Source of the DNA: Alphaproteobacteria bacterium
GTDB taxonomy: Bacteria > Pseudomonadota > Alphaproteobacteria > GCA-2731375
Direction: 5' to 3'
DNA length: 64,000 bases
Assembly (NCBI GenBank): GCA_040223615.1
Contig: JAVKFY010000011.1
Span: forward strand, 125,169 to 189,168
In this document: positions 4,498 through 61,167 of the stretch, piece by piece
Position numbering within the stretch: the first letter of the stretch is position 1
Layout of the letters: each line of letters begins with the position of its first letter
The notes under the pieces: generated by a model
Told to the model about the DNA's origin: nothing
Seen by the model: only the letters and a program-made list of their open reading frames with translations
Databases searched by the model: none
Program-made: the position numbers and the translations under genes

Positions 4498-5850
4498 CTA
4501 ACCGGCCGCCGGCAACACCTTGGCATAGTGTGCCAGCGCCCGGTCGATGAAGGCGGCACCAGCGCCCTGGTAGGCCAGCGGATCGAAACAGGCCGCGAGC
4601 GCCTCGGGCGACAGCGCGGCGGCGACCTCGGGCACCTCGGCGAGGACGTCTTTCAGGTGCCGGTCCTCGGCTTGCGCGGCCCGGCACCCGGCTTCGACGA
4701 CCTTCTTGGCCTCGGGCCGCCCGAGGTGCGGCGCCAGCGCCATCATCGCCGCCTCGGCCAGCACCAGGCCCTGGGTCAGGTCGAGATTGCGGGCCATGCG
4801 GGCGGTGTCGACCTCCAGCGTCGCCAGCGCGGTGGCGACTCGCGCCACGGCGCCGGAAGTATGGATGAACAAAGCCGGCAGCGCGATCCACTCGGCATGC
4901 CAGGCGCCGGCGGCACGTTCGTGCTCCTGCTCCGCCGCGCCCTGCACCGCCGGGACCAGTGCGACGGCCTGGCGCGCGGCGGCCAGCGCGAAAAGGGCGT
5001 CCACCGGGTTGCGCTTGTGCGGCAGCGTCGAGGAGCCGCCCTTACCGGCCGCCGGCGCCTCGAACGCCTCCGCCACCTCGGTCTGCATCATCAGGGTCAG
5101 GTCGCGGGCGATCTTGGCCATCGAGCCGGCGAGGCTGCCGAGCTGGCCGGCGACGGCGCCGATCCGGTCGCGTTCGGCATGCCACGGCAGTACCGGCTCC
5201 GGCAGGTCCAGTTCGGCGGCCAGCGCCGCCATGATCTTCAGCCCGTCCTCGGCGCCAAGCGAAGCCAGCGTTCCCGCCGCGCCGCCGAACTGCAGCGCGA
5301 TGGCCTCGGCCCGCAGCGCCCGCAGCCGCTCGACCTGACGTACCGCGAGGTCGAGCCAGCGCGCCGCCTTCAGCCCGAAGGTGATCGGCAGCGCCTGCTG
5401 CAACAGCGTGCGGCCGACCATCGGCGTGTCGCGGTGGTCGCGGGCCAGGCGCGCCGCGGCGTCGGCCAGTGCGGCAAGCTGCGTTTCCAGCAGGTCGAAG
5501 GCGCCGCGCATCTGTAGCGCCAGGCCGGTGTCCATCACGTCCTGGCTGGTGCCGCCCCAATGCACGACCCGGGCCGCCTCGCCCTCCAGCTTGGACGTGA
5601 GGTGCTTCACGAGGGGGATGGCGGGATTGCCGGCGATGCTCATCTCGGCGTACAGCGCCGGCAGGTCGTAGAGTTCGGCCCGGCACTGCGCCTCGATGGC
5701 GTCCGCCGCGGCGGCCGGGATCACGCCAAGCCGGCCCTCGACGCGAGCCAACGCCGCCTCGAAATCCAGCATCGCCTGCACCCGCGCGACATCGTCGAAC
5801 AGCGCCGCCATCGCCGGCGCCCCGAACGCGGCATCGTGCAGCGCACTCAT
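4498..5850 (-). CDS. pcaB: 3-carboxy-cis,cis-muconate cycloisomerase
   Basis: Fumarase/adenylosuccinate-lyase class II fold with GSSTLPHKRNPV signature; follows pcaH-pcaG; start taken at MSALHD (Met10 of track ORF). Confidence 0.85.
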   Translation of the reverse strand: MSALHDAAFGAPAMAALFDDVARVQAMLDFEAALARVEGRLGVIPAAAADAIEAQCRAELYDLPALYAEMSIAGNPAIPLVKHLTSKLEGEAARVVHWGGTSQDVMDTGLALQMRGAFDLLETQLAALADAAARLARDHRDTPMVGRTLLQQALPITFGLKAARWLDLAVRQVERLRALRAEAIALQFGGAAGTLASLGAEDGLKIMAALAAELDLPEPVLPWHAERDRIGAVAGQLGSLAGSMAKIARDLTLMMQTEVAEAFEAPAAGKGGSSTLPHKRNPVDALFALAAARQAVALVPAVQGAAEQEHERAAGAWHAEWIALPALFIHTSGAVARVATALATLEVDTARMARNLDLTQGLVLAEAAMMALAPHLGRPEAKKVVEAGCRAAQAEDRHLKDVLAEVPEVAAALSPEALAACFDPLAYQGAGAAFIDRALAHYAKVLPAAG

Positions 5851-5909
5851 GGCCGTGCCCGACAGGACGCGGCCCACTTAAAGCTATGAGCGTGCTGTTG
5901 CGCGCTCAT
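5847..5909 (-). CDS. 20-codon upstream ORF (MSAQQHAHSFKWAASCRARP) inside repeated double-hairpin element; start overlaps pcaG stop (TGATG), stop overlaps pcaB start (ATGA)
   Basis: Read directly from minus strand; near-identical uORF present at 61103..61165. Confidence 0.3.
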   Translation of the reverse strand: MSAQQHAHSFKWAASCRARP

Positions 5910-6478
5910 CAGGCGTCGAAGAACACGGTCTCGTCGTCGCCCTGCAGCACGATGCGCAGGCGGTAGACCGGCGGCGTGCCGTCATCGCGCTGTGCGATCA
6001 GGGTGCCGCGACGCGCCTCGGGCACCGAGCCCAGAACCGGGTCGACCTTGTTGGCGCCGTTCTCGTCGGCGAAGTAGAGGCGGGTGTAGGCATGGTTCGG
6101 CATGCCGCGGGCGAAGACCGTCAGGTTCAGGTGCGGCGCCTGCAACACGTTGCCGCGCCCCGGCACCTGGCCCGGCTTGATGGTCTCGAACCAGAAGCAG
6201 CCCTCGGCGTCGGTCGGTGAGCGGCCCCAGCCCTTGAAACTGGCATCGACCGGCTTGTCCTGGGTGTCGTCGGGATGGTCGTAGCGGCCGGCGGCGTTGG
6301 CCTGCCACACCTCGATCAGCGCGTCCGGGACCACCGCGCCGGCGCCGTCGATCACCTGTCCCTCGACGCGGATGCGGGTGCCCTGCGCGCCAGCTTCGGC
6401 GATATGGTGCCGGTTCATCTGGTCGAAGCCGAGCCGCAGGTAGGGGCCGACGGTCTGCGACGGGGTCTGCATCGGCAT
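5909..6478 (-). CDS. pcaG: protocatechuate 3,4-dioxygenase alpha subunit
   Basis: 189 aa, intradiol dioxygenase alpha-chain sequence (GRYDHPDD, HLNLTVFARG); start 4 nt after pcaH stop. Confidence 0.9.
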   Translation of the reverse strand: MPMQTPSQTVGPYLRLGFDQMNRHHIAEAGAQGTRIRVEGQVIDGAGAVVPDALIEVWQANAAGRYDHPDDTQDKPVDASFKGWGRSPTDAEGCFWFETIKPGQVPGRGNVLQAPHLNLTVFARGMPNHAYTRLYFADENGANKVDPVLGSVPEARRGTLIAQRDDGTPPVYRLRIVLQGDDETVFFDA

Positions 6479-39433: not shown

Positions 39434-40618
39434 TCAGGCGATCTCGAACAGGCCGGCGGCGCCCTGGCCGCCGCCGATGCACATGGTGGCGACGGCGTAC
39501 TTGGCGCCGCGACGCTTACCCTCGATCAGCATGTGGCCGACCATCCGCGCCCCGCTCATGCCATAGGGGTGACCGATGGAGATCGCGCCGCCGTTGACGT
39601 TGAGCTTGTCGGCCGGGATGCCGAGCTGGTCGCGGCTGTACAGGACCTGCACCGCGAAGGCCTCGTTCAGCTCCCACAGGTCGATGTCGTCGACCTTCAG
39701 GCCGGCCCGCTCCAGCAGGCGCGGCACGGCGAAGACCGGGCCGATGCCCATCTCGTCGGGCTCGCAACCAGCCACCGCGAAGCCACGGAAGATGCCGAGC
39801 GGCTGGAGGCCGCGCTGCTCGGCGAGCTTGGCGTCCATCACCACACAGGCCGACGCGCCGTCGGAAAGCTGGCTGGCGTTGCCGGCGGTGATGTGGCCGT
39901 CCGGGCCGGTCACCGGCTCCAGCGCGGCCAGGCCCTCCGCGTTGGTCGACGGGCGGTTGCCCTCGTCCTTGGTCAGCGTGACTTCTTCCTCGGAGACCTC
40001 GCCCGTCTCCTTGTTCTGCACCAGCTTGGTGGTCGGCAGCGGCACGATCTCGTCGTCGAACTTGCCGGCCTGCTGCGCCGCGGCGGTGCGCATCTGGCTC
40101 TGCAGCGCGTACTCGTCCTGGTATTCCCGCGACACGTTGTAGCGGTCGGCGACGCACTGCGCGGTCTGCAGCATGGAGTGGTAGATCGCCGGCTTGTGCT
40201 CCTCGATCCAGGGATCGCGGGCACGGTACTTGTTGGCGTGCTCGTTCTGCACCAGCGACAGGTTGTCGAGCCCGCCGCCGACCATCACCGGCACGCCGTC
40301 GACGATGACGCGCTGCGCCGCCATGGCGATGGTCTGCAGGCCGGACGAGCAGAACCGGTTCACCGTGACGCCCGAGGTGGTCACTGGCATGCCGGCGCGG
40401 ATCGCCGCCTGGCGCGCGATGTTGCCGCCGGTGGCGCCTTCCGGCGCGCCGCAGCCCATGATCACGTCCTCGACTTCGGCCGGGTCGACGCCGGCGCGCT
40501 CGACGGCGTGCTTGATCACATGGCCGCCCATGGTGGCGCCATGGGTGTTGTTGAAGGCGCCGCGATAGGCCTTGCCGATCGGCGTGCGCGCGGTAGAGAC
40601 GATGACGGCTTCACGCAT
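39434..40618 (-). CDS. acetyl-CoA C-acyltransferase (thiolase; possibly beta-ketoadipyl-CoA thiolase)
   Basis: 394 aa from [20 protein letters not shown]; active-site [10 protein letters not shown]-terminal CIGGGQG; GAGGAA RBS. Confidence 0.92.
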
Positions 40619-52542: not shown

Positions 52543-52617
52543 GCGGGCGTAGTTCAGTGGTAGAACGTCAGCTTCCCAAGCTGAATGTCGTCGGTTCGAT
52601 CCCGATCGCCCGCTCCA
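52543..52617 (+). tRNA. tRNA-Gly (anticodon CCC)
   Basis: Cloverleaf folded by hand: acceptor GCGGGCG/CGCCCGC, anticodon loop TTCCCAA, T-arm GGTTCGATCC, CCA encoded. Confidence 0.85.
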
Positions 52618-60024: not shown

Positions 60025-60334
60025 GTCCATCACGCGCTGTCTGTCGGCCGGCACCGGCGCCTCGGTGCGCGGCACATCGGAAGCGCTGCACGCACGCAAC
60101 CCGAAGATCCACTGCGTCGCCGTGGAGCCGGCGGAATCGGCGGTGCTGTCAGTCAGCGACGGCGGCGAGCACCGGATCGAAGGCATCGGCGCCGATTTCG
60201 TGGTGCCGCTGTGGCGGGCCGACGCCGTCGACGGGACCGAAACCGTCGCCACCGAGGCGGCGATGGTCACGCTGATGGTCGACAGCGGGATGAAGTACCT
60301 GTCGACCGCGCTCTACGGCCGCGCCGGCGGCTAG
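60025..60334 (+). pseudogene. 3' remnant of a cysteine synthase (CysK/CysM family) gene lacking its N-terminal ~180 codons
   Basis: Frame reads ...SAGTGASVRGTSEALHARNPKIHCVAVEPAESAVLS...HRIEGIGADFVVP...MKYLSTALYG, matching the C-terminal third of CysK (GTGGT loop, VAVEPxxSPVLS, IQGIGAGF, ERYLSTALF); no room upstream for the PLP-lysine half. Confidence 0.55.
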
Positions 60335-60894
60335 CGGTTCGCGCCCGGCACCCAGAGCACGTCGGTGGCGCCATCGTCGTTCAGGTGGCGGCTCAGCACG
60401 AACAAATGGTCGGACAGGCGGTTGACATATTTCAGTGCCGCCTCGTTGACCGGCTCGGCGGCGGCCAGGGCCACCATCTCGCGCTCGGCGCGGCGGGCTA
60501 CGGTGCGGGCCTGATGCAGGTGCGCGGCGGCGGCCGAGCCGCCCGGCAGCACGAAGGAGTTGAGCGGCGCCAGCTTCTCGTTGAGCGCGTCGATCTCGGC
60601 CTCCAGCCGGTCGACCTGCGCCGGCGCGACGCGAAGGCCGCCGGCCTTGCGCCCCTCGCCCTGCGGCGTGCACAGGTCGGCACCGAGGTCGAACAGGTCG
60701 TTCTGGATCCGCGCCAGCATCGCGTCGGCGTCGCCCTCGGTGTGCAGGCGGGCCAGGCCGATGGCGGCGTTGGTCTCGTCGACGGTGCCGAACGCCGCGA
60801 CGCGCAATGCGGTCTTGGATACTCGGCTGCCGTCGCCCAGGCTGGTCTCGCCAGCGTCCCCGCCTCGGGTATAGATGCGCGTCAGGCGAACCAT
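60331..60894 (-). CDS. cob(I)yrinic acid a,c-diamide / cob(I)alamin adenosyltransferase, PduO type
   Basis: IYTRGGDAGETSL N-terminal motif of PduO-type ATR. Confidence 0.88.
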   Translation of the reverse strand: MVRLTRIYTRGGDAGETSLGDGSRVSKTALRVAAFGTVDETNAAIGLARLHTEGDADAMLARIQNDLFDLGADLCTPQGEGRKAGGLRVAPAQVDRLEAEIDALNEKLAPLNSFVLPGGSAAAAHLHQARTVARRAEREMVALAAAEPVNEAALKYVNRLSDHLFVLSRHLNDDGATDVLWVPGANR

Positions 60895-60908: not shown

Positions 60909-61106
60909 CTACAGCACGAACAGGAACAGCAGGATCACGCCGACGGCGGCGAACTGCAGCAGCACGCGCAACTGCATGAGCTTGTTGGAGCGCCGGTGTT
61001 TCTCCACGCTATCGCCGTCGCGCGCCATGGTGACGACGCCGAACAGCAACACGCCGACAATCGCCACCAGCAGCACGACCATCACGATCGGCAGGGCGGC
61101 GCTCAT
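60909..61106 (-). CDS. twin-transmembrane-helix small protein (65 aa)
   Basis: Two hydrophobic helices separated by MARDGDSVEKHRRSNKLMQLR. Confidence 0.65.
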   Translation of the reverse strand: MSAALPIVMVVLLVAIVGVLLFGVVTMARDGDSVEKHRRSNKLMQLRVLLQFAAVGVILLFLFVL

Positions 61107-61167
61107 GGCCGTGCCCAGCAGAACACGGCCCGCTTATCATGATGAGCGTGCTGCTGCGCGCTCATGG
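61101..61167. repeat. about 65-nt double-hairpin repeat, copy 2 (copy 1 at 5847..5911)
   Basis: Hand alignment: CTCATGGCCGTGCCC(A/G)(G/A)CAG(A/G)AC(A/G)CGGCCC..(8-10)..ATGAGCGTGCTG(C/T)TGCGCGCTCAT, about 85% identical between copies. Confidence 0.6.
61103..61165 (-). CDS. 20-codon upstream ORF (MSAQQHAHHDKRAVFCWARP) inside second copy of double-hairpin element; stop overlaps start of twin-TM gene (ATGA)
   Basis: Read from minus strand; paralogous to uORF at 5847..5909. Confidence 0.3.
   Translation of the reverse strand: MSAQQHAHHDKRAVFCWARP

Follow-up and report, generated by a model that had tools for sequence, protein, structure and literature searches.

On the minus strand of the 64,000-nucleotide stretch of alphaproteobacterial DNA analysed here (contig JAVKFY010000011.1 of assembly GCA_040223615.1; hereafter the window) lie two copies of a short element built of two hairpins and a linker, one of them (copy 1, 5909..5847) between the genes pcaG and pcaB and the other (copy 2, 61165..61103) in the 5' leader of a gene for a HIG_1_N small membrane protein. 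Each copy is 63 nt long and carries its own open reading frame (ORF) of 20 codons, which we call the mini-ORF, and the two agree at 52 of 63 bases (82.5%). The original prediction, made from the letters of the window alone, of an element of about 65 nt at two sites with about 85% identity is thereby borne out. As described below for the wider family, the element occupies the start codons of genes exactly, and mostly does so at what would otherwise be 4-nt stop/start overlaps within operons. The features at the two sites are as follows.

5909..6478, minus strand: pcaG, protocatechuate 3,4-dioxygenase alpha subunit, the gene upstream of copy 1; stop codon 5911-5909
5847..5909, minus strand: copy 1, exactly coextensive with its 20-codon mini-ORF (ATG 5909-5907, TGA 5849-5847), between pcaG and pcaB; covariance-model score 80.5 bits
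5886..5909, minus strand: hairpin 1 of copy 1, ATGAGCGCGC-AACA-GCACGCTCAT, with one internal C/A mismatch
5875..5885, minus strand: linker of copy 1, AT-rich and single-stranded, AGCTTTAAGTG; the variable part of the family
5851..5874, minus strand: hairpin 2 of copy 1, GGCCGCGTCC-TGTC-GGGCACGGCC, 10 bp with one C/A mismatch, ending 1 base before the pcaB start codon
5847..5850, minus strand: right ATGA of copy 1, in which the pcaB start codon (5850-5848) overlaps the mini-ORF stop (5849-5847); the start used by orthologous pcaB genes
4498..5850, minus strand: pcaB (Lyase_1/ADSL_C, 450 aa), the gene downstream of copy 1
61103..61165, minus strand: copy 2, exactly coextensive with its mini-ORF, in the 5' leader of the HIG_1_N gene; covariance-model score 83.8 bits
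61142..61165, minus strand: hairpin 1 of copy 2, perfect apart from the family-wide C/A mismatch
61131..61141, minus strand: linker of copy 2, CATGATAAGCG
61107..61130, minus strand: hairpin 2 of copy 2, 10 bp, -17.7 kcal/mol
61103..61106, minus strand: right ATGA of copy 2, in which the HIG_1_N gene's start codon overlaps the mini-ORF stop
60909-61106, minus strand: HIG_1_N gene, 65 aa, downstream of copy 2
60331-60894, minus strand: cob(I)alamin adenosyltransferase gene

Both copies are laid out alike, as a hairpin 1 of 24 nt bounded by RTGA (R, purine), an AT-rich linker of 11 nt, a hairpin 2 of 24 nt and a closing ATGA, copy 1 reading ATGAGCGCGCAACAGCACGCTCAT-AGCTTTAAGTG-GGCCGCGTCCTGTCGGGCACGGCC-ATGA; the repeat unit amounts to 59 nt with an RTGA on either side. 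Folding energies are -12.7 kcal/mol for the consensus of hairpin 1 and, for hairpin 2, -15.9 kcal/mol in copy 1, -17.7 in copy 2 and -20.5 in the consensus. Hairpin 2 had been put down as a 7-bp pairing, GGCCG(C/T)G...CACGGCC, and is more correctly a 10-bp stem with a tetraloop. No terminal inverted repeats were found in the element, the left end ATGAGCGCGC being unlike the reverse complement of the right end, TCATGGCCGT. With up to three mismatches allowed, either half of the element occurs at only two places in the 64 kb, where shuffled sequence gives an expectation of 0, and a covariance-model search of the window found no third copy; a borderline match at 40029-40089 was rejected, as it falls within a 400-aa coding region.

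The two hairpins and the 20-aa ORF with a single Trp codon that had been proposed are present in both copies. The encoded peptides are MSAQQHAHSFKWAASCRARP (copy 1) and MSAQQHAHHDKRAVFCWARP (copy 2), of 20 codons each, and the Trp codon stands at position 12 in the former and at position 17 in the latter. In copy 1, again as proposed, the ATG of the mini-ORF and the pcaG stop have one A in common (TGATG), and the TGA of the mini-ORF overlaps the pcaB ATG; the 5' arm of hairpin 1 here contains the mini-ORF start codon together with a second in-frame TGA, right after the pcaG stop (5911-5909). The pcaG-pcaB spacer had been given as 31 nt, an artefact of a pcaB ORF over-extended to GTG 5877. Orthologues place the true start at ATG 5850, and the spacer is therefore 58 nt. 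The ORF list for the window has pcaB at 4498-5877 (minus strand), beginning at a GTG inside the element; such elements can mislead start annotation. A correction applies to copy 2 as well, in that no co-directional gene lies upstream of it: a divergent gene for a glutathione S-transferase-like protein adjoins, and it is the HIG_1_N leader that holds the copy.

A genome scan that took the hairpin 1 core as its query, with one genome per species, returned 38 stretches, 22 of which lie on 17 contigs (CAZVLI01) of a single metagenome-assembled genome (MAG), that of uncultured Rhodospirillales bacterium GCA_964627965.1. Only these 22 extend into the rest of the element, the other matches sharing just the searched word. 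A profile search revealed extra degenerate or truncated units beside some of the MAG copies, for a total of at least 24 copies in the MAG and at least 27 in the family, spread over three or four related genomes. The MAG is related to the window organism, its cob(I)alamin adenosyltransferase being 92% identical and the neighbourhood syntenic. Tandem arrays occur at four loci (L022, L006, L030 and L010), each with two head-to-tail units that have an RTGA in common; arrays of more than two units were not seen among the loci examined. In a 78-nt subfamily a nested hairpin replaces the GTGT of hairpin 2 (net +15), and this variant was located at three unlinked loci, two of them with tandem pairs:

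L006, 2016-2034 and 2090-2108: nested hairpin CTCGACGCANTGCGTCGAG, tandem pair
L020, 2767-2785: nested hairpin CTCGACGCANTGCGTCGAG
L022, 1438-1456 and 1512-1530: nested hairpin CTCGACGCANTGCGTCGAG, tandem pair

The nested hairpin was found only inside elements and is absent elsewhere in the fetched loci. Its recurrence at three unlinked loci indicates, therefore, that the variant has itself been copied.

The placement of the element was assessed at 20 independent loci, which were scored for the long reading frames with high GC content at third codon positions that end or begin at its borders. At 17 of these an upstream ORF, mostly of 180-880 codons and in a few cases cut by the contig end, ends exactly at the left TGA; the upstream stop of the pcaG-pcaB locus immediately precedes the left RTGA, and two loci, the HIG_1_N leader and L018, have no co-directional upstream gene. 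A long ORF starts at the right RTG in 18/20 loci, the remaining two being one truncated copy and one locus cut by a contig end, and the orientation is sense without exception (20/20). Deleting one unit together with one RTGA recreates an ordinary 4-nt stop/start overlap (ATGA or GTGA). The flanking genes are typical operon partners: a branched-chain amino-acid ABC (ATP-binding cassette) permease followed by its ATPase, MraZ by RsmH, CcmC by CcmD, a [2Fe-2S] subunit by a molybdopterin subunit, and a 2-oxoacid dehydrogenase E1beta by E2. The base before the left TGA, which is the third position of the last codon, is a purine at all 20 loci and an A at 14 of them, as compared with a share of A among pcaB third positions of 3.5%.

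Orthologous loci with and without the element make it possible to delimit what was inserted. Of the pcaG-pcaB junctions compared, those of the window and of a metagenome contig (L040, PcaG 86% identical) are filled, and those of two other contigs (L041 and L056, PcaG 80% and 78% identical) are empty, reading TGAgATGAGCC (gacgccTGAgATGAGCCCGC) with no sequence inserted from gene to gene. For the HIG_1_N leader, the filled state is that of the window and the MAG (L051), and the empty state (..aaggagcctgtgATGAGCGCGG) that of L052, L053 and L057, whose neighbouring genes are 87%, 86% and 82% identical; these empty leaders have a Shine-Dalgarno (SD) sequence and a single ATGAGCGC(G/C)G before the gene. 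Since the orthologous loci of the more distant relatives are empty and have a single ATGA, each copy corresponds to a 59-nt insertion plus a repeated RTGA. The presence of RTGA at both ends, with one ATGA at the empty sites, fits either a 4-nt duplication or the insertion, next to an RTGA, of a unit bringing an ATGA with it. The left and right R differ at three single-unit loci, and most right ends have A (17:2, where the background is 15:9; P=0.08). At the foot of hairpin 1 a TCAY pairs with the left RTGA. On such sequence features the ends would fit a 4-nt duplication or a single-strand mechanism like that of the IS200/IS605 insertion sequences, which enter 3' of a fixed tetra- or pentanucleotide and duplicate no target, about equally well. 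The right RTGA is followed by GCG at 9/19 occupied as against 1/24 unoccupied junctions (P=0.002), and on account of this excess RTGAGCG may be preferred, or microhomology may be involved. A target duplication of greater length was weighed on this count and was not adopted.

Both hairpins are conserved through compensatory changes. When 22 units are aligned, 94% of the cells pair, and shifted registers collapse; both-sided changes occur in 7 of 16 pairs, compared with 1.6 in column shuffles, 0 of 500 of which reach 7. Examples are the GGTCGTG/CACGACC of L001 and the TGCCGTG/CACGGCA of L023. The first base of the mini-ORF and position 24 form AU in 11 units, GC in 6 and GU in 1, and are unpaired in 4 (Fisher P=0.018). 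When the window is compared with L040, the hairpins and ends are identical at 43/46 positions, as opposed to 186/254 four-fold sites of pcaG and pcaB (P=0.002). Conservation follows the stems and not the peptide, whose residues vary freely where the stems co-vary and are unconstrained in the linker. The peptide sequence itself shows no constraint beyond that which the hairpins impose.

The reading frame, as distinct from the peptide, has properties of its own. Anti-SD pairing upstream of the left RTG averages -5.1 kcal/mol, as compared with -6.4 at unoccupied junctions and -2.7 in random sequence (P=0.0003), and upstream of the right RTG it is -2.9 kcal/mol, which is the background level. The host Shine-Dalgarno stays before the mini-ORF and the displaced start codon is without one; it is thus the mini-ORF that the host's initiation signals now serve. 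Hairpin 2 (-20.5 kcal/mol in the consensus) abuts the displaced start codon, and hairpin 1 has both the mini-ORF start and the upstream stop within its 5' arm. Copies that have both hairpins measure 63, 66 (L023), 78 (the subfamily) or 123 nt (L040), and all of them are open from RTG to TGA; the three independent indels are all multiples of three, for which the chance probability is 1/27. It had been stated in advance that loss of the frame or length in additional copies would indicate a purely nucleotide-level repeat, and in the copies of all four lengths the frame is open. The linker has 0 in-frame stops, where column permutation gives an expectation of 2.3-3.2 (P=0.005 for 21 units, 0.03 for the 18 that are independent). 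No U-run was found after either hairpin, and an intrinsic terminator or attenuator was rejected on that ground. A candidate site for integration host factor (WATCAANNNNTTR) in the linker was also rejected, by eye, its ATCAA core occurring in a minority of linkers and the TTR part being absent.

The family was sought well beyond these loci. Searching the consensus by blastn against 72,556 plasmids gave zero matches, and a scan of viral contigs with a looser two-part pattern gave a single match, inside a coding sequence and attributable to chance. A scan of Joint Genome Institute (JGI) metagenomes with the hairpin-2 word CCGTGTCCTGYTGGGCACGG gave 9 matches, all chance, by a pattern that is too strict and misses the TGTC-loop variant (copy 1, L053). 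Rfam 15 yielded nothing beyond chance at the locus at a permissive E-value, and over the whole window the only family at its gathering score was that of one tRNA gene (52543-52614, plus strand). A profile of the peptide found no homologues in a database of 5.8 billion proteins; a tblastx comparison of the window with the fetched MAG loci returned paralogues only, and zero further filled/empty pairs. No description of such an element in Alphaproteobacteria was found in the literature searched. Given that the copies of the scan are those of the MAG and that the plasmid, viral, Rfam and metagenome searches were empty, the family looks lineage-restricted, within a group of uncultured soil Alphaproteobacteria.

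The reading that we favour, and consider reasonably probable, is that of a non-autonomous, lineage-restricted mobile repeat, resembling the interspersed repetitive units of mycobacteria (MIRUs), that keeps translational coupling by means of a relay ORF; its spread and the translation of the mini-ORF are what we infer from the arrangement described. The left RTGA provides the upstream gene's stop and the 20-codon mini-ORF's start, and the right RTGA the mini-ORF's stop and the downstream gene's start. As the ends of the mini-ORF overlap the stop and start of the neighbours, ribosomes are probably passed across the insertion: those that have finished the upstream gene, or have loaded at the native SD, would translate the mini-ORF, melt hairpin 2 in doing so, stop at the UGA and restart on the overlapping AUG. 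That ribosomes terminate and reinitiate at ATGA overlaps has been established by experiment (PMC6728339). The insertion would accordingly keep, and probably tighten, translational coupling rather than abolish expression, and coupling kept in this manner would explain why the element is tolerated in the ccmC-ccmD, mraZ-rsmH and E1beta-E2 operons. The hairpins would be the likeliest part to act in propagation, as single-stranded DNA recognised by some enzyme, and/or in an effect at the RNA level. The original prediction had offered two alternatives, a mobile repeat resembling repetitive extragenic palindromic (REP) sequences or miniature inverted-repeat transposable elements (MITEs), or translational coupling by a leader peptide together with RNA structure; it is partly borne out, the evidence supporting a combination of both. 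From the former, a dispersed repeat with filled and empty sites stands and a classical MITE does not, there being no terminal inverted repeats; from the latter, the chained ORF stands as a consistent property of the family, and a gene-specific leader or Trp sensor does not.

A number of observations weigh against the favoured reading. Two divergent members, L053 249..186 and L030 293..231 (minus strand), the former of which sits 3' of a dienelactone hydrolase gene, keep both hairpins without RTGA ends, ATG, TGA or ORF, with the outer stem of hairpin 1 wholly swapped in a compensatory manner to GGGGG/CCCCC or GGCGG/CCGCC. The hairpin module can therefore exist without the relay. The copy in the 5' leader is conserved no better than four-fold sites, and its hairpin 1 in the MAG has decayed to -4.5 kcal/mol. 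When damaged copies are counted in, the indels comprise three that keep the relay (+3, +15 and +60), two fusions (+1 and -20) and one break of the frame (-19), a spread no different from chance; among the damaged units, L030a (+1) and L034 (-20) are in-frame fusions with the next start, and in L010a (-19) the frame is broken. The avoidance of in-frame stops is weak and modestly significant, and the test is only suggestive because the linker is semi-conserved, the relatedness of the copies weakening it further. Frame 1, in which there is no ORF, is also depleted of stops (P=0.08 by column permutation, 0.01 by within-copy shuffle), and the linker codons are AT-rich and atypical of the host genome. 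Last, removal of the SD in E. coli cut reinitiation by 60-90% in most of the overlapping pairs tested (PMC6728339), and a relay without an SD may by analogy be inefficient; given such losses, the relay may either cost expression or tighten coupling.

Some of these points are what would be expected of a nucleotide-level palindromic repeat, REP-like or derived from IS200/IS605, whose ORF arises accidentally from the RTGA bounds and whose downstream gene initiates independently, and we give this explanation a minor but real chance. It accommodates the members that have both hairpins but no ATG, TGA or ORF, the conservation of stems rather than peptide, the atypical codon usage of the linker with a frame 1 stop-depleted almost like frame 0, and a peptide profile without a match among 5.8 billion proteins. 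Independent initiation should however be poor from a displaced start that has no SD and adjoins a hairpin of -20 kcal/mol, and yet the element resides in the ccmCD, mraZ-rsmH and E1beta-E2 operons, the cell presumably having need of what they encode. Nor would an accidental ORF lead one to expect that every RTGA-bounded copy with both hairpins is open, be it of 63, 66, 78 or 123 nt, that all loci are in sense orientation, or that the right end falls exactly on a start codon in 18/20. Distinctly improbable, in our estimation, is an intercistronic module for RNA processing or stability, in which an RNase E-type cut in the AU-rich linker would leave hairpin 1 guarding the upstream and hairpin 2 the downstream fragment. 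The anatomy of hairpin, AU-rich linker of 9-11 nt and hairpin is suited to such a role, at an operon junction the hairpins have been conserved in situ, no terminator was found, and upstream mRNA is known to be stabilised by hairpins of the REP type (PMC5082802). Cleavage in the linker would nonetheless sever the mini-ORF and leave an SD-less downstream start behind hairpin 2, and the RTGA ends and the exact registration with stop and start would go unexplained.

A gene-specific leader, whether an attenuator, an amino-acid-sensing upstream ORF (uORF) or a functional micropeptide, is suggested by the window copies when viewed by themselves, each of which has RNA hairpins and a short ORF with a single Trp codon, immediately before a gene. 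We find it hardly credible for a family that stands before about 20 functionally unrelated genes, has no terminator after either hairpin, no Rfam match and no protein homologues, and whose Trp codon moves from position 12 to position 17 while peptide residues change freely and linker residues are unconstrained. A bolder proposal, which we regard as unlikely, is that of a transposable unit specialised on the ATGA/GTGA stop-start junctions that are near-universal in bacterial operons, the RTGA target being picked by pairing with the TCAY at the foot of hairpin 1. This pairing would act like the guide of IS200/IS605-type transposition by HUH enzymes, and the GTGA..CAC and ATGA..CAT forms would be variants of different target specificity. 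Its own start codon and relay ORF would allow such a unit to colonise essential operons without polar effects, making it a mobile element that parasitises translational coupling.

Returning to the favoured reading of a MIRU-like repeat with a relay ORF, MIRUs (Supply et al. 1997, as recounted in PMC12548453 and PMC4473831) are reported to insert at start codons and to have an internal ORF coupled at -4 nt (PMC12548453). MIRUs and the present element are alike in being short dispersed intergenic or intercistronic repeats, oriented as the flanking genes and situated at start codons, with a small ORF that overlaps the neighbours' stop and start at -4 nt, and with tandem units at some loci. They differ in that the element has two covarying hairpins (7 pairs; -12.7 and -20.5 kcal/mol), whereas MIRUs 'do not contain dyad symmetries' (PMC4473831). 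The hosts are Alphaproteobacteria as opposed to Actinomycetota, and arrays here have at most two units. Judged by architecture, and from such descriptions, the element would work like a MIRU, and on account of its hairpins we file it as MIRU-like and not as a member of the MIRU family.

A comparable design is found in bicistronic-design cassettes and natural 'ribosome delivery' uORFs, in which a leader ORF uses the upstream SD and its stop overlaps the gene start (PMC12548453). The element shares the leader ORF on the upstream SD and the overlapping stop and start, and its ribosomes would likewise unfold structure and reinitiate. Unlike the engineered cassettes, which have a second SD within the leader ORF, it has none, and it is natural, multi-copy and apparently mobile.

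REP sequences and the bacterial interspersed mosaic elements (BIMEs) composed of them are small GC-rich imperfect palindromes with a GTAG-type 5' tetranucleotide, usually arranged as inverted pairs 3' of genes and served by REP-associated tyrosine transposases (RAYTs) of the Y1 HUH type. With these and with IS200/IS605-derived repeats the element has in common GC-rich imperfect palindromes, compensatory stem changes, a fixed flanking tetranucleotide in the absence of terminal inverted repeats, strand-specific copies and lineage-restricted families. It differs from REPs in lacking a GTAG-type tetranucleotide, in having two unlike hairpins in direct order, and in the start-codon position of its copies. 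A further likeness to IS200/IS605 derivatives is the subterminal hairpin at either end, again without terminal inverted repeats; the left-end and right-end hairpins of IS608 are near-identical, whereas those of the element have only a CGYG/CACG core in common. Rickettsia palindromic elements (RPEs) are found within protein-coding genes, whose products incorporate them. They too are palindromic repeats compatible with an open reading frame, but the present element occupies intergenic positions and starts and stops an ORF of its own. Small size, multiple copies, a short direct repeat at the ends and co-transcription with the neighbours are features of classical MITEs, Correia elements among them, and all of these apply here; the element is no classical MITE because terminal inverted repeats are absent, and it has the identical RTGA at every locus in place of a site-dependent duplication.

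If the relay works as inferred, the element would be a second, independent start-codon repeat with a ribosome-delivering mini-ORF, outside the mycobacteria, and the first such example built on conserved hairpins; the two would then have arrived convergently at ways of entering operons without disrupting them. The family would in that case provide about two dozen natural tests of SD-less termination-reinitiation through a stable hairpin, and a compact natural part of the 'bicistronic design' kind. For annotation, these elements give rise to wrongly extended starts (the 'pcaB' at GTG 5877) and conceal 20-codon ORFs that gene callers ignore. The filled and empty sites could act as lineage markers in these uncultured Alphaproteobacteria.

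Three minor observations concern individual parts of the family. Stops in the linker cluster in frame 2, in which the downstream gene is read (14, as compared with 5.6 expected from within-copy shuffles, P=0.0002), often as TGATAAG. In the orthologous pcaG-pcaB copy of L040, a 65-nt palindromic insert (2660-2724) sits in the loop of hairpin 1; it has the ends CTTACCG/CGGTAAG and two inner GC-rich hairpins, replaces 5 nt for a net gain of 60, and gives a mini-ORF that is still open, with 40 codons. Among the fetched loci the motif of its inner hairpin, GACCCCNNNGGGGTC, turned up nowhere else, and the insert could itself be another small repeat, lodged inside the first. In L053 (~175-110, minus strand), immediately 3' of the copy that lacks an ORF, there is a long hairpin with perfect arms, AATCCGGGAC...GTCCCGGATT, which may be another palindromic repeat or a terminator.

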